In this document: in pieces, positions 27,566-52,169 of the stretch
Position numbering within the stretch: position 1 is the stretch's first letter
Layout: the number at the start of each line of letters is the position of its first letter
NCBI GenBank assembly: GCA_044070495.1
Contig: JBIPSI010000018.1
Span: 48,120-112,119 of the forward strand
Length of the DNA stretch: 64,000 nucleotides
Reading direction: 5' to 3'
From: Spirulina sp.
GTDB lineage: Bacteria > Cyanobacteriota > Cyanobacteriia > Phormidesmidales > Phormidesmidaceae
Translations under genes and position numbers: made by a program
Notes under the pieces: model-generated
Database searches by the model: none
What the model saw: the letters and a program-made list of their open reading frames with translations, nothing else
What the model was told of the DNA's origin: nothing

Positions 27566-28498
27566 CTACTCCGAGGTGACCGGAGTTGGGTTGACCGTGT
27601 TGCGCAGACGATAGCTCAACAGCGACAACGGGTCGTTGGGGTTTTCGGCCTCTAGATCGGCCAAGCTAAGTACCAAGTCGCGGCGATAGCTAACCTCAAC
27701 GGGAGACAGGGGAGGCTGGGCAAGTAGGGCAATTGCATCGTACCAAAGCCCCGCCTCAGCGTATTGCTGAGCCTGCTGTGAGGAATCCCCGGTGATTTCG
27801 ATATCGGTGGGCATCGCCACCACCTGTAAATCTGCCTCGTCAATCCTGTTGCGGGAGGGCTGGCTCTCGCTGCACTGGGCAATAATCTTCCAGCGATAGG
27901 TTTCGCCCACCACCAGGGGAGGCAGATCGTCGGGCAGGGTGAAGGTCATCCACCCCGTCTGGCTCCGGCCTAGATCAAAGAAAGCGACGGGTTCTAACCG
28001 ATCATCCGTTGGATCTTCCGAGGTATATCGGTAGATCTGAAGCTCAAGGGGCACTGGCATGGTGTCAGCAATGTACCAGGTTAGCGTTGGGTGCAGACTG
28101 GCGGTTTGTCCAATGTGGGCTTGGGGGGCCATGGCCGTAAGGCTGGTGGCGGCCCGTCCATCGCATCCGCCTCGGGTGCCCCCGCCCGTGGTGCGGCGAG
28201 GGTAGCCAGGGTCGGCGGGGGGCTGATAGGCGCGAGTCCCGCCCCTAGGGCCTGGGCCTGCGGGGGATAAAGGCTGTCCCCTTCTATCTTCAAAGGCAAT
28301 ATCTTCAAAGGCGGCGGCCAAGGGCCAGGATTGTGGTCTAGCGTCTGTCCCTAGTACCTGTTCCTGGGCAACCCTGGATGAGGGGTTCTCGCGCCCCCAG
28401 GCCGCCCCATGGAGAGGGAGGGAAAAGGCCGCAACATGTCCTAAAAGTAGCAAGGAGAGGACTGGCCCTGCTGCATGGTTCCCTAGGTCTTGTCTCAT
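27566..28498 (-). CDS. DUF928 domain protein with signal-peptide-like N-terminus
   Basis: GGGTRGGC, GQTASLHP.L.WYI, L.VGETYRW....C, YAEAGLWYDAI; start uncertain (ATG 28498 chosen). Confidence 0.8.
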   Translation of the reverse strand: MRQDLGNHAAGPVLSLLLLGHVAAFSLPLHGAAWGRENPSSRVAQEQVLGTDARPQSWPLAAAFEDIAFEDRRGQPLSPAGPGPRGGTRAYQPPADPGYPRRTTGGGTRGGCDGRAATSLTAMAPQAHIGQTASLHPTLTWYIADTMPVPLELQIYRYTSEDPTDDRLEPVAFFDLGRSQTGWMTFTLPDDLPPLVVGETYRWKIIAQCSESQPSRNRIDEADLQVVAMPTDIEITGDSSQQAQQYAEAGLWYDAIALLAQPPLSPVEVSYRRDLVLSLADLEAENPNDPLSLLSYRLRNTVNPTPVTSE

Positions 28499-28974
28499 AG
28501 CTTTACACCCGGTTTTGTGTGGTTCTAATACAGCGCTGCCCTGGACAATGGTCAACTTGAAAAACGGTTCAAAGGAGCAGAATGAACAACATATCTTCGT
28601 TAAAGGCTAAAGCCATGCTCTTAAGGATTTAGAAGATCATTAGCAATGTATTGGGCAATGGCTAGGATTGGATAAAAGTTGTTTACCCATCGAGGTTCGG
28701 GCCAGCCTAGACCGATAGTGAAGGGCTATGGAATCAACTATATCAGGTCTAACAAAAAGAGAGAAATCACCGGAAGAATTTCAGTCTAACGAGGATGAAT
28801 CCTAGAATTCTAGGAGTTCTAGAAAAATTAACCATCCCGACCACTGTGATTTTATCGCAATCGCTTAGCACCTTGGTCGAGATATCGTTAGATTACAAAA
28901 ACATGACTCTAAAGGCACCGAATTTTTCTGCTAACTTAGCTGCCTTTAAATACCTAGCGTATGACCGTTTTCTG

Positions 28975-30909
28975 TCAAGGGCACCCCCAGGGGAACCACC
29001 TTGGCCAAGGCTGCATCGGAGGCTCAATGGGCCAGCGCAGTTCGCAGCAGGTGCCCGATGCAGTGGATCGTCGTTGAAACGTTCCCCCCAGCCGTTGGGC
29101 CAACTGCTTTGCCTGACGGGTACCGCGTCCGCTGAGTTGGGAGGGGGAAGACCCCTCCGCTAACCGCTGACCATTATCCTTGATCTGAATCAGATTTTCC
29201 TGGTCGGTAGCCAAGCAGGTGACCGTGAGGCGGGTGGCATTGACGGCATGTTTGCCCACGTTGCAGAGGGCTTCTTCGAGAAACCATCCTAGGGCCTGAT
29301 ACTCGTCGGGGGAGAGCCTCTGGATCTTGAGAGGCTCGAAGCTGACAATGTTGGGGCCGAGGCTTCTAAAGCCCGGAAAATCTCGCTGGAGAGTTCTGGC
29401 GTAGATTTCGTAGAGGGTTTCGTGGATTGGAACGGCGTCAACCATGCCCGACCCTGGTTCTGCGGTAGGCGTTTGCAGGCTGTTCAGCAGCCCTTCGTAG
29501 ATCTGGCGCAGGTCGTAATCCATTTGCTGAAGCTTGGGTTGCACCTCTGGCCAGCTTAGGGTTTCGTCAGAGTCGCGCAGCAGCAGGGCCAGGGTTTGCA
29601 GGGGGCCGTTGTGGATAGCGTTGTAGGTTTGTTCGATCACCCACTGGCGTTCCTCTAGGCGAGAACGCAGCCCCTTGTCATAGAGATAAAACCCAGAAAT
29701 GACCAGCCCATTCACCGTAAAAGCCAGCAGAGAAGGCACCAGGGGCACCCACCAACCCCCTAGCAGCAAGAGGGCATAGCTAACGGACACCAAACCCAGT
29801 CCAACCACCCCAATCACCAGCAAATACTGGGAGGGTGCGGTGATACGCCGAATGATGACCATTCCCACCCCGCCCCACAGAATAATCCACAGGTATTCCA
29901 AGGCTTCGGGCCAGGTGCGCAGGAGAGCCCGATCCTCTAGGGCGGTGCTCACCAGTTGGCTGACAACGTGGGCATGCATCTCCACGCCGTAGATGAGATA
30001 GGTGCCCTCCGAGGAAACAACGGCGGCAGAGTTCAGCACGTCCTTGGTGCTGGGGGCGGTCATCCCAATCAGCACGATGGCATCCCGAATCCAGGCTGGG
30101 TTCACGCGGCCATCGAGCACATCCGCCAAGGACGCCTTGCGAAAGGGCTGGGCACCGCTGCGCCCATGGATGAGGATCTGGTATCCGCCGGTATCGGCCC
30201 GTCGATAGCCGCCGGTATTGGGGGAAATGGCAGGAAACTCGGCGGTGCCAAACCGCATGGCCAAGGGATCCCGAATCCCGTTTGTCAGGGTCATGCCCTG
30301 GGGGCGCAAATAGAGTTCCGCCAGCCGAATCGCCAGGGAAAACCGATAGTCGCCAGCCGTATTTGCAGACCCAAGCAGGGCACGGCGGACAAAGCCATCG
30401 ACATCGGCCTGAAAATCTACAAACCCCACTTGGACATCAGGCAAAAACGATGGGGCCTGGATGGGTGGGTTGCTGGTAATGCTTTCAATACCGATGACGT
30501 GGGGCCGGGTGGTGAGGGTTTCTATCAAGGCCTGATGGCCCGGTTCTACGGGCAGGTCGCGATAGATATCAATGCCAATGGCACGGGGTTTGTGGACATC
30601 TAGGGCTTCCACTAAGTCTGCGAGCACCCCATCGGGAACCGGATAGGTGCCGAGGCGCTGAACATCCGCTTCGGTCACTCCGATGATCAGAATGCGCTCG
30701 TCGGTTGCCTCGGCGGGCCGCCACCGCAGCAGCGTATCCAGCATTTTCAGCTCTAGCCCCTGAAAGGCCCCCAGTAGCCGTGCCGCCACAATGACGCTGA
30801 GCACCACAAAACCAGGCCCCAACTGCCGGAACAACGGCCCGCTAGGACGCTTGCCCCCTAGGCCAGAGATGTTGCGCCAATTTTGCCAGATTGTACGAGG
30901 GCGATCCAT
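28975..30909 (-). CDS. CHASE2 sensor histidine kinase (NarX/DesK-type HisKA_3 plus HATPase)
   Basis: CHASE2 (DERILII, YPVPD, PRAIGIDIYRDLP, DVDGFVRR, GVEMHAHVVSQL), 3 TM, H-box IHNGPLQTL, N-box EALCNVGKHA, DNG, GRG. Confidence 0.85.
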   Translation of the reverse strand: MDRPRTIWQNWRNISGLGGKRPSGPLFRQLGPGFVVLSVIVAARLLGAFQGLELKMLDTLLRWRPAEATDERILIIGVTEADVQRLGTYPVPDGVLADLVEALDVHKPRAIGIDIYRDLPVEPGHQALIETLTTRPHVIGIESITSNPPIQAPSFLPDVQVGFVDFQADVDGFVRRALLGSANTAGDYRFSLAIRLAELYLRPQGMTLTNGIRDPLAMRFGTAEFPAISPNTGGYRRADTGGYQILIHGRSGAQPFRKASLADVLDGRVNPAWIRDAIVLIGMTAPSTKDVLNSAAVVSSEGTYLIYGVEMHAHVVSQLVSTALEDRALLRTWPEALEYLWIILWGGVGMVIIRRITAPSQYLLVIGVVGLGLVSVSYALLLLGGWWVPLVPSLLAFTVNGLVISGFYLYDKGLRSRLEERQWVIEQTYNAIHNGPLQTLALLLRDSDETLSWPEVQPKLQQMDYDLRQIYEGLLNSLQTPTAEPGSGMVDAVPIHETLYEIYARTLQRDFPGFRSLGPNIVSFEPLKIQRLSPDEYQALGWFLEEALCNVGKHAVNATRLTVTCLATDQENLIQIKDNGQRLAEGSSPSQLSGRGTRQAKQLAQRLGGTFQRRSTASGTCCELRWPIEPPMQPWPRWFPWGCP

Positions 30910-31055
30910 GGGCTAATAGGGAAACGACCTTCCAGGGGATGGGATTTCGAGGGAATGGGCCAAGCCAATAGCCTGGCCCACGGGGTACCTAGCCACTACT
31001 ATCCAATAACCTTAGGGTTTTGGCCCTCGAATGGCAAACCCCAGGGGAATCGCCC

Positions 31056-31922
31056 CTACACAAAGGGATTATCGGCTATGGAGACAAAGTTCCCATAGTC
31101 TTGCCATGCGTTCATAAAGTCGGCATAGGCAATTTCGGAGGCCATGCCGTTGGGGGTGCCGCTGTCGTTCAAAATAATGCTCACGGAGCCATCCCAGCCA
31201 TAGTTGATGCCCGTTACCCACACCGCATGACCACCGTTCTCCTGCTCTAGTGGATTGCCAAAGTAGTCGTAGATGGGGTTCCAAATTTCGTTGGCATCTA
31301 GGCCGACAATGGGCTTGTCGCCCATGGCCAAGGCGTATTGTAAATCGGCAAGAGAGGCTCCAAAAAATTCGATGGTAGGAATCCCTAGGGAATCTAAAAT
31401 ATGGCCTACATACATTAAAGGAGTCCCCGTTAAGGGATCAAACCAGCCCTGGTTTTGGGCAAAATTACCCGCAATATCCTCCGAAATATACACCCCTGTT
31501 AGAGACTCATACACAGAAATTTGAGCCACCACGGCGCAGGACGCAGGCCCCTGCTGCTGCCTCCAATACCAGGCATCCACAAAGGGGGTGCCAAATTCAA
31601 CGGGATCATAATAGCCCCAGCTTGTCGAAGCCCAAGATGTGGTCGCCCATCCCCCCAAGGTGATCTCTAACTGGGGGGCAGAAAACTCAACCAACAGATC
31701 GCTGCCGGACGTAGGAATCAGCGGTTCCCACATCATCAAAAAGTCGTCTATAGAGCCAGGAGTCTCCTCGGAGAAAACTGGAATTGGTAGACTATCTAAG
31801 GTAAAGAAGTCAATCTCTGAGGAACCGAACGCTTCCGTTACACTAACGAAATCAGTGTTCAACGTTTCGCTAATATCATCAGCCTCTAACCATTCCAAAG
31901 CGATCAAAGCTGTAGTAGACAT
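31056..31922 (-). CDS. Very acidic protein with C-terminal C39-like (papain-fold) cysteine peptidase domain
   Basis: QQQGPASCA (Q..C), GHAVWVTG (H), ILNDSG (D), F.NAW; ATG 31922 after AGGA; more AT-rich than its neighbours. Confidence 0.7.
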   Translation of the reverse strand: MSTTALIALEWLEADDISETLNTDFVSVTEAFGSSEIDFFTLDSLPIPVFSEETPGSIDDFLMMWEPLIPTSGSDLLVEFSAPQLEITLGGWATTSWASTSWGYYDPVEFGTPFVDAWYWRQQQGPASCAVVAQISVYESLTGVYISEDIAGNFAQNQGWFDPLTGTPLMYVGHILDSLGIPTIEFFGASLADLQYALAMGDKPIVGLDANEIWNPIYDYFGNPLEQENGGHAVWVTGINYGWDGSVSIILNDSGTPNGMASEIAYADFMNAWQDYGNFVSIADNPFV

Positions 31923-32112
31923 CTGACGTTCCTGCTGCGATGGAATTAACGATGTACCCAAGCTGTTTTCCTTCCACAAACCCGATTTAAGGAAAACGCT
32001 TGTTACTCAACTGTCTACAGTTTAGGATGGCATCCCCAGGGGCGATGGGGAATTTTTAACCAGGCTAACGACTCAATTCAGCCGTTTCTGTTGCTTCTTT
32101 CAGAGGAAGGGT

Positions 32113-32128
32113 TTGCAGAAAACTGCAA
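32113..32128. promoter_or_regulatory. Palindrome TTGCAG-AAAA-CTGCAA, candidate operator
   Basis: Perfect 6-4-6 inverted repeat; near-identical copy at 49010-49025. Confidence 0.55.
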
Positions 32129-32269
32129 GCGGAGGTCTTTTTGATCGGGTTTAATTCTCCTGAGTGGCCGATTTTACAATCCTGACCCAGGGGTCTAGAC
32201 TTGTCCCTAAGCCATCCTTGGTGCTAACACGCTATACCCACAGGCCTGATTGCCTGACACATCTCCAAA

Positions 32270-32537: not shown

Positions 32538-35500
32538 ATGCCTTCACTCCATCGCCCTTGGTGGCTGGCTAGCCTTCTCGCCCCCGGCCTATGGTTGTCT
32601 ACACCCGCCCTGGCCCAACTCCTCCCCGATGCCACCCTGGGGGGCGAAGCTTCTCTGGTGTTGCCGGGGGCACTCATCCAGGGGGATCTGGCCGATCAAA
32701 TTGGGGGCGGAGCCATCCGAGGGGGTAACCTATTCCACAGTTTTCTAGAGTTCAATATCGATGCAGGCCAGCGGGTTTACTTTGCCAACCCGGCGGGCAT
32801 TGAGGCCATCCTCACCCGCGTAACGGGCGGCAATCCATCCAACATTTTGGGCACCCTGGGCGTGGATGGCGCGGCGGATTTGTTCTTCATCAACCCCAAC
32901 GGCCTAGTGTTTGGGGAGAATGCCACCCTCGATATTCCCGGCTCATTCTATGCCAGCACCGCCGAGGCGATTTCCCTAGGGGAGGGCGTCTACAGCGCCA
33001 CGGTGCCAGAGCAAAGCAGTCTGCTGACGGTTAACCCCAGTGCCCTGTTTAGCAACCATCTAACGGCGGCTTCTGGCGATATCCAAAGCCTTGGTCAATT
33101 AGCTGCCCAAGGCAATCTGACCCTAGCCGCCAACACCGTGGATTTGCAAGGGCAGGTGGCCGCTGGGGGCGATCTCACCCTGCTGGGGCTAGATACCGTA
33201 CGCATTCGCGACGGGGTGGAGGCCCCCTTTGTGGGCTTTGCCGGGGGCAACCTGCTGGTGCAGGGCCACGACCAGGTGGATATTGTGGCCCTCAGCCATC
33301 CCGATAGTGGCCTGTATAGCTATGGCGACATGGTGCTGCGGTCGGGCAACCCCGTGGGCGGCGATGCCTACTACTGGAGCGGCGGCAACTTTCGGGTAGA
33401 AACCCTAGATGGCGATCCTGGGAGCTTATTCAGCCCCATCGACCCCGTGATCCGTGCCCTGGGGGATGTGGAGATGTTTGGCTATGCGGGGGGATCGCTG
33501 CATATCCTGGCGGGGGGATCGGTCAATATTGGCACCGCCATCATCACCGCTGCCGACCCTGGGGTGCTTGGGGTCGATTTCTTGCAGGAAACCATCACCC
33601 TCTCCGATGGCACCGTCGTCGCCATTGATGGCGGGGCACAGCCGACCCTAGATGTGCGGGCGGGATTAGCTCCTGAAGCTATTGGGGTAATTTCTCCTGG
33701 CAATATTAGTGGACTGAATCCGGACGCTATTCTTTTGGATCTGGCTACTACCAATGAGCCTTTGAGGGGGGATATTACCGTTGGTGATGTGTTTATAGAT
33801 GCCCCCAATGGGCTGGTGCTGTTGACCAATCAGTACCAGCCTAACCCCACTCTGGCGGGCGGTAATATTGCTGTCACCGGGGAGGGCATCTATGGCGATG
33901 GCATTGATGCCCGAGGCTTTGGCGGTCAAGGCGGAACCGTGTACCTCGATGCCCGTAATGATGTGTTAGTGACCAATAGCTCCATTGAAACCACAGGGGC
34001 TGGAGTGGTTGGTGATGTGGTGATCAATGCGGGCAATGCCGTGCGCCTTGAAGAACAAAATCGTCGAACGGTGGTGGGTAGCAGCATTGCCGCAGGGGCA
34101 ACGGGGACGGGGGGCGATGTTCGCATTCGGGCCGCCACGGTAGAAGTCTTGGGTGGGGCACAGATCTCGGCCAGCGTCTTTGGCAATGGCGATGCGGGCA
34201 ATGTGGAAATTACGGCCCGTGATCAGGTCGTTTTTGATGGCACCACCGCCGATGGTCAATTCAGTAGTGCGGCCTTTAGCACCGTTGAAAATGGGGCCGT
34301 GGGTACTGGAGGTAACATTATTATTCGCACAGGTTCCCTAGCCGTTACCGATGGAGCCTTGCTATCCACCAGCACGTTGGGCGTCGGCCATGCGGGCCAT
34401 GTGGAGATTGAGGCCCGTGATCGGGTTGTCTTTGAAAATGCTGATATCTTCAGCCGTGTGGGTTCTGATGCCATTGGGGATGGCGGCAATATCACGATTC
34501 GCACAGGCTTCTTAGATGCCACCAATGGGGGATTCCTATCCGCCAGCACCCTGGGCACTGGCCATGCAGGCAACATCGACATTGAAGCCCGTGAAGCCGT
34601 CGTTTTTGATAGCAGCGATGCCGTGAGCGATATTGGAACTGGGGCCGTCGGGGTCGGGGGGAGTGTCATCATTCGGGCTGGATCCCTGGATGTCTTAAAT
34701 GGGGCGCAGTTGTCGGCCAGCACCTTGGGCATCGGAGATGCGGGCAACGTGGAGATTGAGGCCCGCGACACCGTTACGTTTGAGGGCAGAAGCGCCGATG
34801 GCCGGTTTGCCAGTGCCGCCTTTAGTCGGGTAGAGGCTGAAGGTCAAGGGCGAGCGGGCGACATCGTCATTTCGGCCAATGCCGTCAGAGTAGCCAATGG
34901 GGCATCGGTAGAATCATCCACCTTGGGTTCTGGCGATGCCGGTGATGTGCTCATTACAGCCCAAGATCAGGTCGCCCTAGACAATGCCAGCACCTTTAGT
35001 CGCGTTGGTACTTCGGGCGTGGGGAGCGGGGGCAATGTAATCATCCACACTGGATCCTTAGAGGTTAGGAATGGAGGGCAACTATCATCCAGTACCCTGG
35101 GCCTTGGGGATGCGGGCAACGTGGAGATTACGGCCCGTGACCGAGTTGCCTTTGACGGCGTCAACACCAACAGCCAGCTTAGAAGTGCTGCGTTTAGCAC
35201 CGTCCAAGCCGGGGCAGAGGGGGCCGGAGGGAACATCGTAATTCGTACCGACACCCTGGAAATGACCAACGGGGCAGGGTTATCGGCCAGTACCTTTGGC
35301 ACTGGCCGAGCAGGCAATGTGGACATTGAGGCCCAGGGCCAGGTCATCTTTGATACCACAGCCAATGCTTTGAGCAATGTGGGGCTTGGGGCCGTGGGGG
35401 AGGGCGGCAGTGTGGCGATTCGGGCAGATTCCCTAGCGGTGCTGAATGGGGCACAACTCAACGCCAGTACCTTGGGTATCGGAGATGCCGGCAATGTAGA

Positions 35501-40332: not shown

Positions 40333-40365
40333 AGACCAGGCCAAAGACCGAGGATCAGACCAGGT

Positions 40366-43005: not shown

Positions 43006-43145
43006 GGAAACGGCACCTCAGCCAACGTAGGATACAGATTTTTAAGCCCAGTTCCAGTATTCTAAGTAATTACAATGAGGTCTCAGTATTCGCTCAGTGT
43101 TTACAGCTAGCTTTCAGGGTACCAGAGGTCTACCACGGAGGGAGG

Positions 43146-46100
43146 ATGCCAGGGTACAAAAGGAACCGTTGGCCGCTCAGATTGCTCGTTTTAGGGGTTG
43201 TGGGGGGCGCTAGCGGCCTCGTCCTGCCCAAAGCGGCCCTCGCCCAAAACGCCATCACCCCCGATGCCACCCTCGGCGGCGAGGCATCTCAGGTATTTGC
43301 CTTTCCTTTCTTCCCTACCCTAGACTTCATCCAAGGTGGTGCGCTCCGAGGCACCAACCTCTTCCACAGCTTTGAGCAGTTCAGCATTGGCGAGGGTTTC
43401 GCCGCTTATTTTGTCGCCCCCACGGTAGATACCGCCAATATCTTTGCCCGTGTTACGGGGGGCAATCCATCGGAAATCTTGGGTCTTTTGGGAACCGTTC
43501 AGGCGGACTTCTCACCCTCTGCGGCCAACCTATTTTTGCTCAACCCCAACGGCATTCTCTTTGGCCCTGGGGCCAGCTTGGATATTGGCGGTTCCTTTGT
43601 TGCCACCACCGCCGATGCTATTCAGTTTGGCGATCAGGGAATCTTTAGCGCCCTAGTTCCAGAGTCAGATAACTTATTAGAAATTAATCCATCAGCCCTG
43701 TGGTTTAGCGGTCTTACTGCACCAAAAAATATTGAAGTTCGTGGCGATTCACCTGTCAATCTGGTTACCTTGCGAGTCTTAGAAGAACGAAACCTAACTC
43801 TGATTGGAGGCAACATCAATTTCGATTATGGACAATTATTTACCCCAGGAGGACGAACCAATATTGTGGCGTTAGCCGCAGGCGGTATCGTAGAACTCAA
43901 CAACCTAGACAGTTCATTAGCCGTACCCGCAATGAGTCAGCGGGCCGATGTAGTATTCAATAATTCATCCGCTATAAACGCCGTGTCGGGCGGCGGCGGA
44001 GATATTTCTATCATTGCCGACAATGTGACTATCTCTAATTCTAGCGGGATTTTTACAGGTATAGGCCCTAATCTTGGTGATGATGAAAGCCAATCTGGAG
44101 ATATTCGTGTTGACGCAAGCGGAACTGTCACTGTTCTCAATAATAGCTTCATTGGCAATGCCGTATTGGGTCAGGGGAGGGGTGGCGGCATTATCGTTCA
44201 GGCTCAGGACATTTCGATGATCAATGGTAGCCAAATTTCGGCGGCAGGCATTGGAACCGGCAGCGTTGGCAATGTTACTCTTGAGGCCACTGAAAATATA
44301 TCTCTGTCGGGGGTAGGAGTTAACGGAACACCGAGTGGTATTTTAAGCTCTGTGGCACAAAACGTTCCTGGGTTCGAGAACTTTCCTGGCCAGGGTGATA
44401 GTGGCAGTATTAACCTAAGAGCGACCAATCTAACTCTGTCGGATCGAGCCATAATATCTAGTTCTAGCGTATTTGCCCCAGGTCGCTCAGGTAATATCGA
44501 CGTTGTCGTCGATAGCTTCACCTTAAATGGAGGTGCTCAGCTTTTTAGCAGCACCTTCGGTGATGGAAATGCTGGTGACGTTTCGATTTCTACTCGATTG
44601 CTAACGGTGCAAGGCGGTAGCTCGATTCGGAGTGATACTTCTGGCTCAGGGCAGGGTGGATCTCTAATCATACGAGCAACGGAAGCCACTAATTTAATTG
44701 GGTCGGATCCCTCAGAAGCTGGAGGTGGAGGTAGCAGATTGTCCACAGAAGCAGCTAACTCCGGTGATGCAGGGCTACTGCGCTTAGAAACGGGACAATT
44801 AACATTACAAGATGGGGCTGGCATTGATGCCTCAACTTTTGGCTCTGGCTCAGCGGGAAGTGTTGAGATTACTGCTGATTCAATTTATCTAACGGGAGTT
44901 CGAGCTGATCGCCAATTTGCCAGCACCATTCGTAGTATTTCTGGCATTAGCTCAGATCTAATTCCTGCAACAGGAAATGCAGGCAATCTTTCGATTACTA
45001 CCCGCCTGCTTTCTGTGGAAGATGGTAGTTCCATTGAAACCGCAACCTATGGCGCAGGTCAAGGTGGAGCTTTGACCGTACGAGCCATAGAAACGATAGG
45101 GTTAATCGGTTCAGGTTCTCTAACTACTGGGGATACGAGTAGTGGGCTTGCCACTCAAACCTTTGGATCTGGCAATGCAGGCCAATTTAGATTATACGTA
45201 GGAGAACTTAGTCTTCAAGACGGAGCGGGTATTAGCACCTCCACCTTCGATGCGGGCAATGCAGGAAGTCTTGAAATCAATGCAGACTCCATTCGTCTGA
45301 CAGGGATTCGGGCCGATCAAAACTTTTCTAGCAGTATCCGAAGTATTGCTGGGGTTACCTTTGAGGGTATCCCAGCAACGGGCAATGCAGGTAACCTTTC
45401 TATCAACACTCGATTGCTCAGTGTGGAGGATGGAGGCTCCATCCAAACCACAACTGCTGGCCCAGGGCGGGGTGGGAATTTAGTGGTAGATGTCACGGAA
45501 AAAACGGAGTTGATTGGCTCTGGTTCACTCACCACTGGAGTTGCAAGTAGTGGATTATCTACGGGCACGACGGGTTCTGGTGATGCAGGCTTGTTAAGCC
45601 TTTCTACCGGGCAACTGATCGTGCGGGATGGGGCTACGGTGAACGCCTCGACCTTTGGCGGTTCCGGCTCGGCTGGAAATTTATCGATAACGGCAGACTC
45701 GATTCATTTATCAGGTATTCGATCAGATCTGCAATTTGCAAGCACTATCCAAAGCATTTCTGGCTTTAGTCCTGATTTTGTTCCTGCAACGGGCAACGCA
45801 GGCAATCTTTCCATCTCTACCCGGTTGCTGACTGTGGAAGATGGCGGATCTATTGAAACGGCAACCTATGGCCCAGGACAGGGCGGCGATCTAACCATAA
45901 ACGCAACGGAAGCTGTAAATTTAACGGGTTCAGGTGCTCTGTCCTTTAGAACGATCAGTAGCGGACTAGGCACCCAAGCCTTCGGTGCTGGCAATGCGGG
46001 TAATTTGCGATTAGCAACAGAGCAACTCACCATTCAGGACGGAGCGGGGATGAGTACCTCCACCTTTGGCGGTTCAGGCTCGGCGGGAAATCTCACGGTT

Positions 46101-47201
46101 GATGCAGACTCTATTCGTCTCATTGGCGTTCGATCTGACGGACAATTTCCCAGCAGCATTCAAAGTGTTGCTGGCCTTAACTTTGATCTCACTCCCTCCA
46201 CAGGTAATGCAGGCGATCTTTCCATCAACACACGGTTGCTGACCCTGGAAAATGGGGGATCGATTCAAACCACAACCTCTGGCCCAGGGCGGGGGGGAGC
46301 GCTGAACATAAGAGCCACGGAAGCGGTGGAATTAACGGGAACAGGTTTTCTCGTTACCAGCCCCTTTGCTGGCCCCCTTGGCAGCAATCTGTTTACGGGT
46401 ACCTTTGGCGAGGGCAATGCGGGGCCACTGAATCTGCAAACGGATCAACTGCGATTGCGGGATGGCGGCGTTATTTCCACCCGCAGCGAAAGTGCTGGGC
46501 GGGGAGGAGACATTAGCCTGACGGTCAGCCACCTAGACATGGTGAATGGCACCCTCGAAACCGAGGCCCCGTTTTCCCAAGGGGGAAACATAAGCGTCAA
46601 CACCAGCCGCAACGGCACCACGGGGTTGATTACCCTGCGCGGCGACAGCGACATTACCACTAACAGCTTTGGCCGTGGTGGCAACATCACCCTGAACGGC
46701 ATTGTTATTGCCTTTGATGACAGCGATATTCTGGCCCGTTCTGAGGATGCAGCGGGGGGCAACATTACCCTGGGGCCATTTTTTAGCGATACCTTGCCCG
46801 TGGGAGCCATTTCACCCACCGAAAATAATAACCGAGTGGATGTGAGCGCAGCGGGGCGGTTGGCCGATGGGAACATTACCCTGCCGAATCTCAGCTTCAT
46901 TGAAAATAGCCTTGCCAGTTTGCAGGAGGTGACGGTGGATCCTAACCTGCTAACGGCGGGAAGCTGCATCGCCCGCAGCCCTGGCAATCAAGCTTCCTTC
47001 GTGGTCACGGGGAGTGGTGGTCTGCCAGTGCAGCCTGGGGATAACGTGATTTCCGCCTATCCCACGGGGGCTGTTCAAACCCTGCCAGGGGCCGATCCGC
47101 CAGCCGTTTGGCAACCGGGGGATCCCATCGTGGAGCCAACGGGGGTGTTTGCGTTGCCCAATGGTCGCCTTGTGCTTGCGCGGGCCTGTGATGATGAATA
47201 A
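43146..47201 (+). CDS. Filamentous-haemagglutinin-family TpsA exoprotein 2
   Basis: ATG 43146 after GGAGGGAGG; signal peptide ending ALA-Q; TPS domain (NLFHSF, RVTGGNPS, LNPNG); about 136-aa repeats; same Cys-bracketed C-terminus as TpsA1. Confidence 0.9.
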   Translation: MPGYKRNRWPLRLLVLGVVGGASGLVLPKAALAQNAITPDATLGGEASQVFAFPFFPTLDFIQGGALRGTNLFHSFEQFSIGEGFAAYFVAPTVDTANIFARVTGGNPSEILGLLGTVQADFSPSAANLFLLNPNGILFGPGASLDIGGSFVATTADAIQFGDQGIFSALVPESDNLLEINPSALWFSGLTAPKNIEVRGDSPVNLVTLRVLEERNLTLIGGNINFDYGQLFTPGGRTNIVALAAGGIVELNNLDSSLAVPAMSQRADVVFNNSSAINAVSGGGGDISIIADNVTISNSSGIFTGIGPNLGDDESQSGDIRVDASGTVTVLNNSFIGNAVLGQGRGGGIIVQAQDISMINGSQISAAGIGTGSVGNVTLEATENISLSGVGVNGTPSGILSSVAQNVPGFENFPGQGDSGSINLRATNLTLSDRAIISSSSVFAPGRSGNIDVVVDSFTLNGGAQLFSSTFGDGNAGDVSISTRLLTVQGGSSIRSDTSGSGQGGSLIIRATEATNLIGSDPSEAGGGGSRLSTEAANSGDAGLLRLETGQLTLQDGAGIDASTFGSGSAGSVEITADSIYLTGVRADRQFASTIRSISGISSDLIPATGNAGNLSITTRLLSVEDGSSIETATYGAGQGGALTVRAIETIGLIGSGSLTTGDTSSGLATQTFGSGNAGQFRLYVGELSLQDGAGISTSTFDAGNAGSLEINADSIRLTGIRADQNFSSSIRSIAGVTFEGIPATGNAGNLSINTRLLSVEDGGSIQTTTAGPGRGGNLVVDVTEKTELIGSGSLTTGVASSGLSTGTTGSGDAGLLSLSTGQLIVRDGATVNASTFGGSGSAGNLSITADSIHLSGIRSDLQFASTIQSISGFSPDFVPATGNAGNLSISTRLLTVEDGGSIETATYGPGQGGDLTINATEAVNLTGSGALSFRTISSGLGTQAFGAGNAGNLRLATEQLTIQDGAGMSTSTFGGSGSAGNLTVDADSIRLIGVRSDGQFPSSIQSVAGLNFDLTPSTGNAGDLSINTRLLTLENGGSIQTTTSGPGRGGALNIRATEAVELTGTGFLVTSPFAGPLGSNLFTGTFGEGNAGPLNLQTDQLRLRDGGVISTRSESAGRGGDISLTVSHLDMVNGTLETEAPFSQGGNISVNTSRNGTTGLITLRGDSDITTNSFGRGGNITLNGIVIAFDDSDILARSEDAAGGNITLGPFFSDTLPVGAISPTENNNRVDVSAAGRLADGNITLPNLSFIENSLASLQEVTVDPNLLTAGSCIARSPGNQASFVVTGSGGLPVQPGDNVISAYPTGAVQTLPGADPPAVWQPGDPIVEPTGVFALPNGRLVLARACDDE

Positions 47202-48909
47202 GTTCTCCCTCTGGATGGTGTGGCTATTGCGCTTTGGGTTAGGTGGCCTAGTGCTGGGGATGGCAGTTTGGGCAGGGGTGGCCCAAGCTCAAACGTTGCC
47301 GCCCCTGCCCGATCTCACCGAACCCACGCGGCCTGCGCCCCTGCCGCCCGTTTCGCCACCGCCCCAGCCAGAGGTTCCCCTAGAGGTGCCCCCCACGACC
47401 GAACCCAGCCCGCCCACCGTGCCCCCCGATCTTGAGGAAATGCGCTTTTTAATCGAGCGCATTGAGGTGTTGGGGAATACGGTGCTGGAGGCCGAAATTG
47501 ACGCCCTAACGCAACCCCTAGAGGGGACAGAGCTATCCCTTGGCGACCTGCTCAAGCTGCGTACCGACATCACCAGCCTCTACGGCCAGAACGGCTATGT
47601 GACCTCAGGGGCGTTTTTGCCCACCAACCAGGATTTGACCACCGGGGTCGTGCAAATTCAGGTGATTGAGGGACGTCTGGAGGCGATTCAGGTGAACGGG
47701 CTAACCCGCCTCAGGGAGGCCTACGTTCGGGATCGGGTGGCCCTGGCGGCGCAGCCTCCCCTGAATTTGCCACGGCTGGAGGAGTCCCTGCGACTGTTGC
47801 AAATTGACCCCCTGCTGGATCAGGTCAATGCGGAACTAACGGCGGGCAGCGGCCCTGGCCAAGACTTGCTGATTCTCGATCTCGCCGAGGCGGACCCCTT
47901 TACCCTGGGGTTCACCCTCGACAATGCCCGTTCCGCCAGTACCGGATCGGTGCAGATCGAGGCCCTGGCCCTCCACCGCAATGTGTGGGGGTTGGGCGAC
48001 TTTGCCAGTCTGCGCTATGGCCACACCCAGGGTCTCGATCTCTACGAACTGCGCTACGGCGTGCCCCTCAATGCCTACGATGGGGTGCTCCAGGTGCGCT
48101 ACGAAAGCGCCAATAGCCGCATCATTACGCCCCAGTTTGTGGATGTGGGCATTCGCAACGAAAGCGAAACCCTGGCCCTATCGTTTCGCCAACCCCTCAC
48201 CCGCTCGATTCGGGAGGAATGGGCGCTGGGCCTCGCCTTTGATCTGCGCGAAAGCCGTAGCTTTATCCTCAACGACATCCCCTTTTCCTTTTCCGTAGGG
48301 CCAGAAAATGGGGTGTCTCGGGTGAGTGCACTGCGGTTTTCCCAGGAATGGCTGCGGCGGGATGTGACGCGGGTACTGGCGGCGCGGTCGCAGTTTAGTT
48401 TGGGCCTAGACCTGTTTAATGCCACCGTCAACAATACGGGTACCGATGGGCGGTTTTTGGCGTGGCTGGGGCAATTTCAGTGGGTGGAGCAACTGCCCCC
48501 AGGGTGGCTTTTGGTGAGTCGGGTGAATGCTCAGCTCACCCCCGATTCGCTGCTGCCGCTGGAGCGCTTTAGCCTGGGGGGGCCAGATACGGTGCGTGGC
48601 TATGGCCAAAACCAGATCGTGACCGATAATGCGGTGCTAGGTTCCATTGAGCTGCGCATTCCCCTGTCAGCCCGTCCCAACGAGCTTCAGATCATCCCCT
48701 TTTTGGATGCGGGCACTGGGTGGAACAATCAAACCGCCAACCCCAACCCCACGACCCTGGTGGGCACGGGGCTGGGTCTTCAGTGGCAACCCGTGGATGA
48801 CCTCAACCTTAACCTCACCTACGGGCTACCCTTGGTGGGCCTTCCCAACCGGGGCACCTCCCTGCAAGAGAACGGCTTCTACTTTTCCCTCACCTATCAG
48901 CCGTTTTAG
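47191..48909 (+). CDS. TpsB (ShlB/FhaC/HecB family) outer-membrane transporter
   Basis: Signal peptide; Pro-rich linker; POTRA (IEVLGNT, Y...GYVTSGA, IEGRLE); TVRGY motif; C-terminal Phe; start overlaps the TpsA2 stop. Confidence 0.92.
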   Translation: MMNKFSLWMVWLLRFGLGGLVLGMAVWAGVAQAQTLPPLPDLTEPTRPAPLPPVSPPPQPEVPLEVPPTTEPSPPTVPPDLEEMRFLIERIEVLGNTVLEAEIDALTQPLEGTELSLGDLLKLRTDITSLYGQNGYVTSGAFLPTNQDLTTGVVQIQVIEGRLEAIQVNGLTRLREAYVRDRVALAAQPPLNLPRLEESLRLLQIDPLLDQVNAELTAGSGPGQDLLILDLAEADPFTLGFTLDNARSASTGSVQIEALALHRNVWGLGDFASLRYGHTQGLDLYELRYGVPLNAYDGVLQVRYESANSRIITPQFVDVGIRNESETLALSFRQPLTRSIREEWALGLAFDLRESRSFILNDIPFSFSVGPENGVSRVSALRFSQEWLRRDVTRVLAARSQFSLGLDLFNATVNNTGTDGRFLAWLGQFQWVEQLPPGWLLVSRVNAQLTPDSLLPLERFSLGGPDTVRGYGQNQIVTDNAVLGSIELRIPLSARPNELQIIPFLDAGTGWNNQTANPNPTTLVGTGLGLQWQPVDDLNLNLTYGLPLVGLPNRGTSLQENGFYFSLTYQPF

Positions 48910-49009
48910 GGCCATGGGGCGAGAATCCTAGGGGCGAGGCCTCCTGGTTGGCCTAAACCGAGGGAGTCAGATGGGGGCTAGTATGATACTTTTTTCTGGG
49001 GTCGCGACT

Positions 49010-49047
49010 TTGCAGAAAAGTGCAACGCAACTGGCGACAAACTGACA
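49010..49047. promoter_or_regulatory. Tandem candidate operator sites upstream of the pseudokinase-regulator pair
   Basis: TTGCAG-AAAA-GTGCAA (49010-49025), then TGGCG-ACAAAC-TGACA starting 22 bp later. Confidence 0.5.
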
Positions 49048-49103
49048 GTTCATAGGGGCAAGACGCGCTTAAATTTAATGGGGTGTAATGCCCTGTACCC
49101 TTT

Positions 49104-49763
49104 TTGGCTGGTGTCTGGCCTATAGACACGGAGAAAGTCTCCTTGACTGAGCAATGGCGTTCCGCAACCGATTCAGCCCAGTTGTTGCGTTGGTGGCACC
49201 AGCATCAGGCCCGGTGGCTGGTGGGTGAAGCCGATGCGGTGCGTAATGGTATTTTGCAAGACCTGTTTGCCGTGCGGCGTCAGCTAGAAATGATGGCCGG
49301 AGACGACGCCCAGGCCCTTGCCACCATTGAACATCTGTATAGCGCTCTAGAGAACCTGGGGGATCGACTCAGTTCGCCCTACCTCTTCGAGTCGTTGCCC
49401 CTAGCCCTTCAGCACGCCCTCAAGCAATGGCCTGCGGATCTGGCCCTTGAGGTGAAGCTGCCCAGCCAATGGCCCAAGGAGCCGATGGAGCGCGTTACCC
49501 TGGTGCTCTCAGTGGTTGACCATATCCAACAAACCCTAGCGGCCCTATCGACCCAGCCCCAGACCGGCACCGTAGAACTAGCGGAAACCCAGGGCCACAG
49601 GCAGCTTACTATCGCTATTCACCTAAAACCGCTGTCCCAGGCTATCGAGGGCGAGCAATCCTTAGATTGGGCCTACCACCTCTCTACCTTTGAGGCCATC
49701 ACCGGTGGGCAGGCCCACTGCACGCACACGGGCTCCAGCGTAACCTGGCAACTGACCTGGTAG
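49104..49763 (+). CDS. Degenerate histidine-kinase-like protein lacking the phospho-His
   Basis: EADAVRNGILQDLF aligns with the HisKA_3 H-box but has R at the His position; SLPLAL and GHKL-like strand pattern without N/G boxes; start uncertain (TTG). Confidence 0.6.
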   Translation: MAGVWPIDTEKVSLTEQWRSATDSAQLLRWWHQHQARWLVGEADAVRNGILQDLFAVRRQLEMMAGDDAQALATIEHLYSALENLGDRLSSPYLFESLPLALQHALKQWPADLALEVKLPSQWPKEPMERVTLVLSVVDHIQQTLAALSTQPQTGTVELAETQGHRQLTIAIHLKPLSQAIEGEQSLDWAYHLSTFEAITGGQAHCTHTGSSVTWQLTW

Positions 49764-49812
49764 ATTACCCTTGTCCCAGCCTTGTCCCATTGTCGCAACC
49801 TCACCCAAGCCC

Positions 49813-50475
49813 ATGTCTAGCCCCCAGCCCCGCCAACAACTGCTTGTGGTTGATGACCACGAAGCCGTCCTCCATGGCACCATTGCCGCTCTCCAGCAAA
49901 CCTATCCCGATGCAGATATTCGCACGGCCCGTACCGCCCAGGAGGTCGAAACTAGCCTAGCGAGTGCCCTCCCTGCCCTAGTGGTGATGGACTTGTCCAT
50001 TCCCGAAAAGTCAGGGGATACGTCCCAAACCGAGACAGGAATTCGCCTGCTGCGGTTGCTGATGCAGCAATACCCAGACCTCAACATTGTGGTGCAGAGT
50101 GCCCATGTGAAGGCGCTGGTGCGACTAAAGCCCGCCATTGCCAACCACCAAGGCGGCTTCACCATCGTAGACAAAAACCTACCCCTGCGCGAAATGCTCA
50201 CCAAGGTAGACTGGGCCTTGCAGGGCATTATTTACACCCCCAAGGACATGCGGGCCACCCTAGAAATCAAACCCGAATGGCTAACGGTGCTTCAGTTGGC
50301 CTTTCAAGAGGGGCTGCAAGATAAAGCCATTGCCGAGCAAATGAACGTGGCCGAGCGCACCGTCCGCCACTACTGGACTAAGGTGCAAGACGCCCTAGAC
50401 GTCTACCCCGACCCCGGTAAAAACATTCGTATTCAAACCGAAATTCGTGCCCGCGAAGAGGGGCTGATTGATTAG
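49813..50475 (+). CDS. NarL/LuxR-family response regulator
   Basis: VVDDH, VMDLSIP, C-terminal HTH GLQDKAIAEQMNVAERTVRHY. Confidence 0.9.
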   Translation: MSSPQPRQQLLVVDDHEAVLHGTIAALQQTYPDADIRTARTAQEVETSLASALPALVVMDLSIPEKSGDTSQTETGIRLLRLLMQQYPDLNIVVQSAHVKALVRLKPAIANHQGGFTIVDKNLPLREMLTKVDWALQGIIYTPKDMRATLEIKPEWLTVLQLAFQEGLQDKAIAEQMNVAERTVRHYWTKVQDALDVYPDPGKNIRIQTEIRAREEGLID

Positions 50476-50690
50476 CTTCTGGTTCAACAGCGACTATGGA
50501 CGGCTAGGCCCCTGTCACTTTTCGGCCAAGCTATACCGTTATTTCGGCAGCGAACTCGGCATAAAAGGTAAATGATCTCCATGGATGAGTTGCCTATTCT
50601 AAGGCCATGGAAAGCAACCGAGCCAAGGCTTAATCAACCAAGGCAAGCTTGAATCGCACTCTACAAAACTCATCCCCTCCGGAGATCACC

Positions 50691-52169
50691 ATGGCTATTA
50701 TCATTGGATCTATCTTCAGCGATGTTGTTGTTGATACCGTGTTCAACGACGCGATCTATACCTACGAAGGAAACGACTATATCTATGGCGGTATTGGTTT
50801 CGATTACATCAATGGTGGATTTGGTCTTGATACGGTAGATTACGGCTTTCTCGGCCTAGGCATTACCCTAGAAGCCGGTGGTTTTGTTAACAAAGGAATT
50901 GCAGGTATCGACGAGTTGTTCTCCGTTGAAAACATCGTTGGCTCCGCCGGTTACATCAATACTATCGACGGCTCAACGGATCTCAGCGGCACCCTGGCAC
51001 TCAACGTTGATCTCTCACTCAATAGCGCAACCTTTACTAGCCTGCTAGGGTTGGGTAGCCAAAGTTTCCTGGTGCAAAACTTCATTGATGTCATTGGCAC
51101 CATCAACGATGACATCATCATTGGAGACTTTCAAAACAACGTCCTGAGCGGATGGGGTGGCGATGATTACATCTTTGGCGGCAGCGGCAACGACTTAATT
51201 TATGGCGGCAGCGGCAATGACACCCTAGACGGTGGTTCGGGTAGCGATGCCCTCTATGGTGGTTCGGGTAGCGACTATATCTACGGCAGCTTCGGCTCTG
51301 ATTTTATCGACGGCGGATCGGGTTTCGACACGGTAGACTACGGTTTCCTCAGCACGGGCATTGTGTTAGATGCTAACGGCTTTATCAATAAGGGTATTGA
51401 AGGTATTGACAGCTTGGTCTCCGTTGAAAAGGTGATCGGTTCTGGCAACTATGTCAACACCATTGATGGCTCCACGGAACTCACTGGCTTAGTTTCACTC
51501 AATGCCAATCTATCTCTCAATACGGTTTCCTTCAATAGCCTCCTGGGCTGGGGTTCCCTAGAGTTTACTGTGCAAAATTTCATCGACGTAATCGGCACTG
51601 TCAACGATGACACCATCCTTGGCGACCTGCAAAACAATATCTTGAGCGGCTGGGGCGGCGATGATTACATCTTTGGTGCGGGCGGCAACGACGTCATTTA
51701 TGGCGGCAGCGGTAACGACACCCTAGATGGTGGATCGGGCAGTGATTCCATCTATGGGGGATCGGGCAACGATGTGCTGTACGGCGGTAGCGGCCATGAC
51801 TATCTCTCTGGCGGTAGCGGCAGCGATCTATTGGTAGGGGAATCGGGTAATGATACCTTGGTCGGCTATGGCTTTGGATTGGCGGAATACGACACCCTTT
51901 CCGGTGGTTCTGGGGCCGATCTATTTGTGCTTGGCGATGCGAGTGGGGTTTACTATCTAGGCGCTGGCTATGCCACCATCACCGATTTTAACTACCTAGA
52001 GGGCGACAAAATTCAGGTGGCGGGCAGCAGCAGCAACTACAGCCTATCCTTCCAAAACTGGTCGGGAGGATTCGCCCTAGATACCCTCATCTATTTCGGC
52101 AGCGACCTGATTGGCGTTGTTCAAGACAATACCAATGTTATTCCCTACTTCGATTTTGTCTCCGCTTAG
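50691..52169 (+). CDS. RTX/hemolysin-type calcium-binding repeat protein
   Basis: Many GGxGxD nonapeptides; 166-aa internal duplication; no signal peptide; ATG after GGAG. Confidence 0.88.
   Translation: MAIIIGSIFSDVVVDTVFNDAIYTYEGNDYIYGGIGFDYINGGFGLDTVDYGFLGLGITLEAGGFVNKGIAGIDELFSVENIVGSAGYINTIDGSTDLSGTLALNVDLSLNSATFTSLLGLGSQSFLVQNFIDVIGTINDDIIIGDFQNNVLSGWGGDDYIFGGSGNDLIYGGSGNDTLDGGSGSDALYGGSGSDYIYGSFGSDFIDGGSGFDTVDYGFLSTGIVLDANGFINKGIEGIDSLVSVEKVIGSGNYVNTIDGSTELTGLVSLNANLSLNTVSFNSLLGWGSLEFTVQNFIDVIGTVNDDTILGDLQNNILSGWGGDDYIFGAGGNDVIYGGSGNDTLDGGSGSDSIYGGSGNDVLYGGSGHDYLSGGSGSDLLVGESGNDTLVGYGFGLAEYDTLSGGSGADLFVLGDASGVYYLGAGYATITDFNYLEGDKIQVAGSSSNYSLSFQNWSGGFALDTLIYFGSDLIGVVQDNTNVIPYFDFVSA

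Follow-up and report, generated by a model that had tools for sequence, protein, structure and literature searches.

Ten adjoining cyanobacterial genes are co-inherited and likely form one cell-envelope signalling system

In Pseudomonas aeruginosa LapG, a cysteine protease of the periplasm, detaches the adhesin CdrA, a TpsA protein whose partner is CdrB, from the cell surface by cleavage (PMC4694147). In Sinorhizobium meliloti the CHASE2 cyclases of the NsrA - CyaD1/CyaD2/CyaK - Clr pathway raise cyclic AMP in response to a protein signal that is received via an outer-membrane beta-barrel (PMC13001267), and in magnetotactic bacteria a CHASE2-adenylate cyclase gene comes after that for MtxA (PDB 4Z29), which carries a signal peptide (PMC4439547). 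CHASE2 also appears among the variable C-terminal sensors of the EACC2-caspase systems, together with an extracytoplasmic function (ECF) sigma factor and DUF1822 (Kaur, Iyer, Burroughs, Aravind 2021, PMC8195603); what we say of these four articles refers to the sections of each that were consulted. Here we describe a set of genes in a 64,000-nucleotide stretch of Spirulina sp. DNA (hereafter the window; contig JBIPSI010000018.1, assembly GCA_044070495.1) that brings together two TpsA proteins and one TpsB of the two-partner secretion (TPS) pathway, an exported TPR-CHAT protease, the exported protein DUF928, two CHASE2 sensors, a pseudo-histidine-kinase, a NarL/LuxR-type response regulator and a C39-like peptidase. 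These ten adjoining genes are co-inherited and likely form one cell-envelope signalling system, to which an eleventh gene, encoding an RTX-repeat protein, probably does not belong.

The locus resembles the Lap/CdrA system in having a periplasmic cysteine protease that would act on a TpsA pathway, inner-membrane receptors tied to a nucleotide second messenger and parts that span the envelope, yet the resemblance is functional only: the protease of the window is a CHAT protein (clan CD) and not of the transglutaminase-like LapG type, its receptors join CHASE2 to a kinase or a cyclase and are not GGDEF-EAL proteins that bind cyclic di-GMP, DUF928 and a phosphorelay with a pseudokinase are added, and cleavage of TpsA is here only predicted. 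CdrA is said to carry a 'cysteine hook', and a two-Cys TpsA plug at TpsB combined with a periplasmic protease would parallel CdrA/LapG. With the S. meliloti pathway the locus shares CHASE2 cyclase architecture, an outer-membrane barrel and a protein signal, here a putative one (PMC13001267); NsrA, however, is not a TpsB, the signal there is a host ribosomal protein and not a self-encoded export, and the consulted sections of that article mention neither a CHAT protease nor DUF928, a kinase branch or a pseudokinase. MtxA is like DUF928 in being exported, in its Ig-like and TPR-like domains and in having its gene next to that of a CHASE2 receptor, a cyclase in its case, with a structural match that is borderline (Z 8.0), but it has a different N-terminal half and no sequence match to DUF928. 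A caspase-superfamily protease linked to CHASE2 sensing in multicellular-type bacteria is common to the EACC2 systems (PMC8195603) and the window, whose protease is nevertheless a separate, exported TPR-CHAT protein and not a cytoplasmic caspase fused to the receptor, and whose block has neither an ECF sigma factor nor DUF1822 and uses a kinase/regulator pair and a cyclase as output. The words 'hemagglutinin' and 'two-partner' are absent from the main text of PMC8195603, supplements being outside this check. A WD40 survey notes one CHASE2-DUF928 pair (PMC5587647), the sole mention of DUF928 in the literature searched, and no description of the DUF928/CHASE2/CHAT/TpsA/TpsB set was found there (subscription journals were outside the scope), in agreement with the original prediction, which knew of no functional description of such a pathway.

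The genes of this set co-occur far beyond chance and are kept together across cyanobacterial families. The genome that carries the window has 4 DUF928, 11 CHASE2, 23 CHAT, 4 TPS and 3 ShlB matches; all four DUF928 genes adjoin a CHASE2 gene and have a CHAT gene within 15 kb, and all four TPS and all three ShlB matches lie inside those four DUF928 clusters. One of the sister clusters holds a TpsA-CHAT fusion (1947 aa) beside TpsB, DUF928 and a Ser/Thr-kinase-CHASE2 protein, another holds CHASE2, DUF928 and a POTRA-TPR-CHAT fusion, and a third (C16) has a sigma-like protein, DUF1822, a CHAT-like-CHASE2 fusion, DUF928 and TpsA, followed at a distance of 12 kb by TPR-CHAT and TpsB, so that in C16 the likeness to the EACC2 systems occurs along with DUF928, TpsA, TPR-CHAT and TpsB. 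Across the phylum, DUF928 is found in 78 of 251 sampled genomes (53 of 117 genera). In five complete genomes from five families we compared 25 DUF928 places (26 rows, two stretches of one frame being merged) with random positions in 2000 trials, and found CHASE2 within 3 kb at 13/25 (random mean 0.19, maximum 3), CHAT within 15 kb at 9/25 (random mean 1.9, maximum 7), TPS within 15 kb at 5/25 (random mean 0.55, maximum 4) and ShlB within 15 kb at 4/25 (random mean 0.44, maximum 4), figures that express linkage and no probability, the relatives being non-independent and the null ignoring general gene clustering. The tightest pair was TPS-CHAT: at 22 of the 25 TPS places CHAT either shares the frame (12) or is encoded separately within 11 kb (10), and at 3 there is none.

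A further line of evidence comes from the pseudokinase, whose family (207 representative sequences) occurs in 23 of 251 sampled genomes of the phylum and 14 of 117 genera. We examined 21 of its 25 places in other genomes, the four omitted being from an already-sampled genus, two at contig ends. Directly downstream of the pseudokinase gene lies an orthologous regulator in 19 of the 21 loci, and a kinase with the same core then follows, likewise in 19, comprising 12 CHASE2-kinases (610-660 aa) and 7 short kinases that lack CHASE2. The next gene is DUF928 at 6 of the 12 CHASE2-kinase loci and at none of the 7 short-kinase loci, and a CHAT gene stands beside DUF928 in 4 of the 6. The usual operon is pseudokinase, regulator, CHASE2-kinase and DUF928, then often CHAT. 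Orthology to the operon of another genome (G017) is evident from the regulator, which is 66% identical in the same operon position, and from the CHASE2-kinase (43% identity). In the window this operon is split: CHASE2-kinase and DUF928 lie to the left, and pseudokinase and regulator to the right, of the genes for the C39-like peptidase, TpsA1, CHASE2-cyclase, CHAT, TpsA2 and TpsB, an arrangement that had been missed in the original prediction. The split operon is the best single argument that positions 27566-50475 are one unit. The gene set is also present, in altered order, at six loci examined within the same genus: the gene immediately upstream of the pseudokinase is TpsB in four and TpsA in one, a CHASE2-cyclase gene lies against the regulator gene in one locus, and one locus combines the four-gene core and CHAT with two TpsA and a single TpsB. 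The claim that these genes are one co-inherited set is thus upheld by the neighbourhood checks run in the genome of the window, in five complete genomes, at the 21 pseudokinase loci and at the same-genus loci.

Table 1. Positions, strands and sequence features of the genes and elements of the block (numbering is that of the window; aa, amino acids)
Feature	Position	Strand	Description
DUF928 exported protein	27566..28498	-	310 aa from Met20 of open reading frame 27566-28555; PF06051, E 3.4e-28
DUF928 N-terminal motif YQPPADPGYPRRTTGGGTRGGC	28163..28228	-	invariant Arg; candidate ligand or cleavage site
CHASE2 sensor histidine kinase	28975..30909	-	644 aa; periplasmic CHASE2 (PF05226) 2e-60, HATPase_c 7.9e-6, DesK/NarL-type core, His433
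Probable C39-like papain-fold cysteine peptidase	31056..31922	-	288 aa from Met20 of the 307-aa open reading frame 31056-31979; acidic variable N-terminal region
TpsA1	32538..38177	+	1879 aa; signal peptide, TPS domain (Pfam 1.2e-37), beta-helix repeats, Cys-bracketed C-terminal module 37956-38159
CHASE2 sensor-class III cyclase	38434..40332	+	632 aa; CHASE2 2.3e-56, Guanylate_cyc 3.7e-30
TPR-CHAT protease	40366..43005	-	879 aa; signal peptide 42880-43005, TPR region, CHAT (PF12770) 2.4e-59
TpsA2	43146..47201	+	1351 aa; signal peptide, TPS (Pfam 1.5e-41), repeats, Cys-bracketed C-terminal module 46962-47189
TpsB	47149..48909	+	POTRA and ShlB/Omp85 barrel; ShlB (PF03865) 1.7e-27, POTRA_2 (PF08479) 1.7e-20, Omp85 1.3e-14
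Pseudo-histidine-kinase, cytoplasmic	49104..49763	+	219 aa; dimerization and histidine phosphotransfer (DHp) hairpin and catalytic and ATP-binding (CA)-like domain; Arg47 (49242-49244) at phospho-His position
NarL/LuxR-type response regulator	49771..50475	+	234 aa; Response_reg 4.7e-9, weak GerE
RTX-repeat protein	50649..52169	+	506 aa; HemolysinCabind (PF00353) 4.8e-45, 8 stretches

DUF928, which tracks CHASE2, has a start at Met20 that agrees with the database record and is ordered into a signal peptide, a disordered linker, a conserved N-terminal peptide, an Ig-like domain and a TPR-like domain. In an alignment of 33 sequences, proteobacterial ones included, P100, R109 and other residues are invariant; the conserved stretch that follows the variable linker reads Y-x-PP-(6-10)-P-x-R-x-x-GGGTRGG(C), with the Arg invariant, and downstream of it come a beta-rich domain and then a helical end with AGLWYDA. 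A Cys after the motif and another in the beta domain are both present in cyanobacteria and both missing in the proteobacterial sequences, and the two may be joined by a disulfide. The structural model, with a predicted local distance difference test (pLDDT) score of 78.8, has residues 1-88 disordered, residues 91-100 packed on the body (pLDDT ~90), and an Ig-like sandwich with TPR-like helices. The best match of the body (model residues 119-304) is MtxA (4z29_B), with a root-mean-square deviation of 4.1 over 141 aligned residues at Z 8.0, a borderline level that the tool rates as possibly mere common arrangement; the next match scores 6.8, and after re-alignment 4z29_B was the sole PDB chain at Z >=8 and the sole listed chain spanning most of both DUF928 domains. 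MtxA stood out only on this re-alignment, Foldseek searches with the model giving generic beta-sandwich matches only, at template-modelling (TM) scores of 0.2-0.3, and a PDB sequence search with DUF928 gave no relevant match and no sequence match to MtxA. The linker of the window's DUF928 (28229-28390, minus strand) is unusually long and rich in Pro, Gly and Arg, and just ahead of the conserved tail motif it carries part of a second one (GPRGGTRAY).

The tail peptide of DUF928 also occurs on its own. At 2 of the 6 CHASE2-kinase loci that have no DUF928 (L067 and L078), a free-standing tail peptide gene lies directly downstream on the same strand; the small gene of L067 encodes a signal peptide and then AGYEPPDDQKPPKESSDSSGVRVMDG, that of L078 a signal peptide and then AEYQSPPEQKAPSGYTDSSGVR, which ends precisely at the conserved Arg, and both tails closely resemble the DUF928 tail of a locus of the same genus (L068). 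No CHAT gene is present within the 20 kb fetched at either locus. A free peptide at loci without CHAT is the pattern expected if the tail is the active part and a protease has to act only on tethered tails.

The candidate receptors of such a peptide are the two CHASE2 sensors, each of which has one hydrophobic segment ahead of CHASE2 and a hydrophobic block behind it (segments 34-52/356-399 in the kinase and 15-43/339-384 in the cyclase). Their CHASE2 parts are 48% identical over 380 aa, and a quick tree places both in one subgroup and separates them from those of the three sister clusters, so the twin CHASE2 sensors of the original prediction are indeed close paralogues with two different outputs; such a pair of like receptors with unlike outputs suggests that a single input is read out in two ways. 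The HATPase_c domain of the kinase lies close to its cut-off (26.7 versus 26.4 bits), and His433, within the H-box AIHNGPLQ, is conserved in 35 sequences. The cyclase, inspected by eye for class III motifs, keeps the metal-binding Asp and has what we take to be the Lys/Asp pair typical of adenylate cyclases.

The CHAT domain of the TPR-CHAT protein scores 201.6 bits against a Pfam cut-off of 24, and the N-terminus (MSPRLRRLGRGW...ASPAQA/A) has the appearance of a signal peptide. His744 (in ATHG, 40774-40776) and Cys791 (in TACE, 40633-40635) form what, from established knowledge of clan CD, we take to be the catalytic pair, and the His744 column is H in 17 of 17, the Cys791 column C in 16 of 17 CHAT paralogues of the same genome. 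Both the export signal, read by eye, and the intact His/Cys dyad, seen as conserved columns in the paralogues, are therefore as had been proposed. The CHAT orthologues beside DUF928 in other genomes likewise have a signal-like N-terminus (4 of 4), and a PDB sequence search with the CHAT domain returned no relevant chain. On a separate contig of the same genome (C35, ~1500-44600) we observed eleven CHAT matches within ~45 kb, mostly in open reading frames of 800-1200 aa.

TpsA and TpsB have the features of two-partner secretion (type Vb), and export of TpsA via TpsB is predicted. The TPS domain is PF05860, TIGR01901 exceeds its cut-off in both TpsA proteins, and both signal peptides end ...ALA/Q. 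The number of components, two TpsA and one TpsB by Pfam, stands as originally predicted, but the start of TpsA2 had to be corrected and a C-terminal module had been overlooked. Within the TpsA2 open reading frame (42768-47201) we place the start at ATG 43146, with GGAGGGAGG just upstream, so that the TpsA2 gene does not overlap the CHAT gene; the TpsB gene abuts TpsA2, and TpsB itself likely starts at Met15 (47191). TpsA1 has ~16 repeats of 58 or 66 aa each (periods of 198 and 174 nt), TpsA2 four of ~136 aa each. Common to both is a C-terminal module of 70-90 residues, SC(I/V)AR ... GSF(V/I)VTGSGGLP-x-RPGD ... PTG-x-V ... GVY-x-LP-x-GRLVLSR-x-C, bracketed by two Cys residues, which recurs in the TpsA proteins beside orthologous modules at four loci (L017, L061, L075, L076), takes a single-Cys form in the TpsA of sister cluster C16 and is absent from the TpsA-CHAT fusion of C6. 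This Cys-bracketed module probably stays at or in the TpsB pore.

The 219-aa protein had been put down as a pseudokinase, and the model together with Foldseek gives it a DesK-like fold with Arg in place of the phospho-His. The model (pLDDT 87.7) has a helical hairpin and an alpha/beta domain, and its top Foldseek match is DesK (3gie_B, E 2.7e-7, 213 of 219 columns), with DivL (4q20) and ChpT (4fmt) also listed. At the level of sequence the link is weak (hhalign E 0.002, probability 13.8%); compared by BLASTP, the 219-aa protein and the CHASE2-kinase showed no significant match, and PDB sequence and profile searches gave nothing useful. The helix EAE-x-IRNGLLQ mirrors the kinase H-box AIHNGPLQ with Arg for His, Arg47 is nearly invariant in the alignment, and no N or G1 box is visible in the 219-aa protein. 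The likeness to DesK-DesR thus lies in a model that aligns with the cytoplasmic part of DesK and in a neighbouring CHASE2-kinase with a matching H-box; unlike DesK, DivL and ChpT, the pseudokinase has Arg for the phospho-His and no visible ATP boxes, and it is free-standing and soluble. Genes for a regulator and a true kinase accompany it almost without exception, and it might serve as a scaffold, phosphatase or inhibitor. The Response_reg domain of the regulator scores 36.9 bits against a cut-off of 30.2 and GerE falls just below its own (23.2 versus 23.5), with all NCBIfam matches below cut-off. The short kinases (304-322 aa), which have the same core with neither CHASE2 nor DUF928, were observed at L063, L069, L073, L074, L077, L079 and L082, and the existence of such loci without CHASE2 means that the core can work with another input.

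We favour, tentatively and with somewhat less than even confidence, the reading that these genes are one co-inherited cell-envelope signalling system that works likely via a peptide signal made outside the cytoplasm. DUF928 would be the periplasmic partner of the CHASE2 domains, on which its conserved N-terminal peptide (Y-x-PP ... GGGTR) would act; the exported CHAT protease might free or remodel this peptide by cutting near the invariant Arg, and the TpsA filaments could let what happens at the cell surface bear on the protease. There would be two outputs: the CHASE2-kinase would pass phosphate to the regulator, with the pseudokinase tuning the transfer, and the CHASE2-cyclase would make a cyclic nucleotide. 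The C39-like peptidase may be an occasional accessory. Our confidence falls from the partnership of DUF928 with CHASE2, through the activity of the tail, the processing of DUF928, TpsA or both by CHAT, and the coupling of TpsA to the surface, down to the tuning of phosphotransfer by the pseudokinase. A fully specified version, in which DUF928 is a tethered pro-ligand, CHAT is gated by the TpsA filament and cuts after the invariant Arg to free a CHASE2 ligand of ~20 residues, surface contact or damage is passed on to the phosphorelay and the cyclic nucleotide, and some lineages bypass the protease by encoding the peptide directly, seems to us unlikely to hold in all its parts.

Several observations weigh against a peptide signal produced by the protease. 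In the five complete genomes no CHASE2 gene lies within 3 kb at 12 of 25 DUF928 places and no CHAT gene within 15 kb at 16 of 25; L061 and L081, which have a full-length DUF928 and the orthologous kinase module, have no CHAT gene in the fetched DNA, and in G017 the nearest CHAT gene is 483 kb away. Given the modules without CHAT (L061, L081), the protease cannot be strictly required, short of a remote copy doing its work. CHAT proteases differ in where they cut, and cutting after Arg is therefore a guess. Free peptides were seen at 2 loci only, both of one family (f7) and with weak hidden Markov model E-values (0.7), so that misses are possible; none was found at the other DUF928-less CHASE2-kinase loci (L064, L070, L071, L072), at 23 further DUF928-less CHASE2 loci of the five genomes or near the 11 CHASE2 matches of the window's own genome. 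The claim that a product of DUF928 is sensed by CHASE2 has indirect support from a conserved, loosely attached peptide with an invariant Arg and from its free copies at 2 of 6 loci, but such copies are absent from 4 of the 6. To these points we add the borderline level of the MtxA match and the fact that export signals and topology were read by eye and from a Kyte-Doolittle scan.

The close association of TPS with CHAT (22 of 25 fused or within 11 kb) and the fusion of CHAT to the C-terminal end of TpsA at 12 of 25 places, and to POTRA in one sister cluster, point to another possible use of the protease, namely regulated release of an adhesin in the manner of LapD/LapG and CdrA/CdrB, in which CHAT would cut a TpsA tail held in TpsB, DUF928 and CHASE2 would control or report on the protease, and signalling would adjust adhesion. 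Conservation of the two-Cys C-terminal module in stand-alone TpsA proteins at five further loci of other genomes fits such release, and LapG provides the precedent of a periplasmic cysteine protease that cleaves a TpsA adhesin, CdrA (PMC4694147). The receptors, however, have kinase and cyclase outputs without the degenerate GGDEF-EAL input module by which LapD exerts inside-out control, Pfam finds neither a LapG-type protease nor LapD GGDEF-EAL domains among the eleven proteins, DUF928 tracks CHASE2 and not TPS (13/25 versus 1/25 within 3 kb), and the free DUF928-tail peptides would be left unexplained. We regard regulated release as rather doubtful, and note that it can coexist with a DUF928-derived peptide signal.

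The block might also consist of two co-travelling units, a CHASE2/DUF928 two-component sensor and a TpsA/TpsB/CHAT secretion system, whose only link would be a NarL-type regulator that switches on the secretion genes. In keeping with this, the kinase operon often lacks TPS and CHAT (TPS within 10 kb in 3 of 21 loci, and 7 of 21 with a short kinase without CHASE2), TpsA-CHAT fusions are often far from any DUF928 or CHASE2 gene, and in the window, as at 4 of the 6 loci from the same genus, TpsB immediately precedes pseudokinase and regulator, which fits co-transcription. Set against these observations, all four DUF928/CHASE2 pairs of the genome lie near CHAT, three of them with TPS, 4 of 6 orthologous loci have CHAT and DUF928 as immediate neighbours, the operon split around the secretion genes is kept, in reshuffled form, within the genus, and the exported parts all share one compartment; we judge an arrangement of two such units quite unlikely. 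A role in conflict or kin recognition, with TpsA delivering or displaying something to neighbours as in contact-dependent inhibition and the caspase-like protease as effector or executioner (compare the catalogue of the Aravind group), could account for the many CHAT paralogues, the C35 island of 11 CHAT matches among them, for the reshuffled gene order among close relatives and for sister cluster C16, which is of the published EACC2-caspase-CHASE2 type with sigma factor and DUF1822 (PMC8195603). Yet the block shows neither a toxin/immunity pair nor a toxin tip that varies at the C-terminus, the C-termini of TpsA being conserved between paralogues and across families, the CHASE2 proteins of the window lack the EACC2-caspase module, and Pfam finds no STAND NTPase or other conflict-system marker in the block, so that we hold conflict or kin recognition to be very improbable.

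Two flanking proteins of the regulatory genes had been described simply as acidic. Both are acidic, each with an isoelectric point of 4.05, but their identities as a probable C39-like peptidase and an RTX protein had been missed, and membership of the RTX protein in the set is unsupported. The 307-aa protein itself has no Pfam match; its neighbours in the protein atlas are Peptidase_C39_2 clusters (score 0.93), with structure rows at TM 0.52-0.59. The family has 140 homologues, mostly cyanobacterial and many with PF13529, and Q123, C129, H232, N252 and D253 are invariant in 24 aligned sequences, while a PDB sequence search with the peptidase gave no relevant match. We considered the peptidase as a core member and rejected it: module genes (DUF928, CHASE2, TPS or ShlB) occur within the fetched flanks in 5 of 44 C39-like loci (one more has a weak CHAT match only), as against dynamin-like genes at 30 of 44, and because module genes are nearby in just 5 of 44 loci we treat it as an accessory. 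The dynamin-like GTPase genes, one to three beside the peptidase, were seen in cyanobacteria, actinomycetes (Embleya, Streptomyces), Acidobacteria, Chloroflexota and others, and we know of no description of this pairing. The RTX protein was also weighed as a member; a similar neighbour is found at 1 of 21 pseudokinase loci and at 1 of 44 C39-like loci, and the protein is probably merely a neighbour. A search limited to the window found no type I secretion genes (ABC transporter, membrane fusion protein, TolC) among the open reading frames scanned.

As the original prediction had it, the stretch 27566-52169 comprises eleven contiguous open reading frames, zero housekeeping genes among them, with the domains claimed (Pfam). 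It is bordered on the left by genes for a major facilitator superfamily transporter and a CHASE4-HAMP cyclase and on the right by HD-domain and RsfS genes, all unrelated to the cluster, and its wider flanks carry SbtA, DUF2396, XisH, ChlM and a flavodiiron protein. The nearest relatives of the window's proteins are labelled Nodosilinea, Leptolyngbya or Leptothoe by their sources. Signal-peptide-like N-termini were recognised by eye on TPR-CHAT, TpsA1, TpsA2, TpsB and DUF928, and neither inspection nor the hydrophobicity scan found one on the 307-aa frame, the 219-aa protein, the regulator or the RTX protein. Beyond Pfam, NCBIfam added the filamentous-haemagglutinin N-terminal domain and sub-threshold matches only. 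A repeat search found no intergenic motif common to the block and returned the coding repeats of TpsA1, TpsA2 and RTX and the CHASE2 paralogy; for 40366-50365 no RNA sequencing runs are listed, only four metagenome DNA runs. Elsewhere in the window, the CHASE4-HAMP-class III cyclase (24050-25897, minus strand), lies two genes left of the cluster, so that 30 kb hold three membrane sensors whose output is a nucleotide or a kinase. A XisH gene (55807-56193, minus strand; PF08814, 3.7e-48) stands by itself among the open reading frames scanned, with a possible XisI partner at ~55455-55790, and positions 12751-13218 (plus strand) encode a small dual-specificity-phosphatase-like protein with weak matches to PTP-NADK and polymorphic-toxin-system phosphatase models.

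New here are the pseudokinase family, the four-gene core operon, the split-operon argument, the count of TPS-CHAT fusions, the TpsA C-terminal module, and the C39-like identity with its dynamin link. The CHASE2 domain was reportedly defined in 2003, and to our knowledge what such domains sense has been an open question ever since, with a protein signal indicated in the only studied case, that of S. meliloti. The locus and its relatives bear on this signal, in that they raise the questions of whether the DUF928 tail switches CHASE2 and whether an exported caspase-like protease makes it. If true, this would be the first role for periplasmic CHAT proteases and for the many cyanobacterial TpsA-CHAT fusions. 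Release of TpsA by CHAT, if that were the correct explanation, would add a second and unrelated way in which a protease controls how a type Vb adhesin is let go. In addition, the locus brings with it a newly defined pseudokinase family that accompanies a NarL-type pair.

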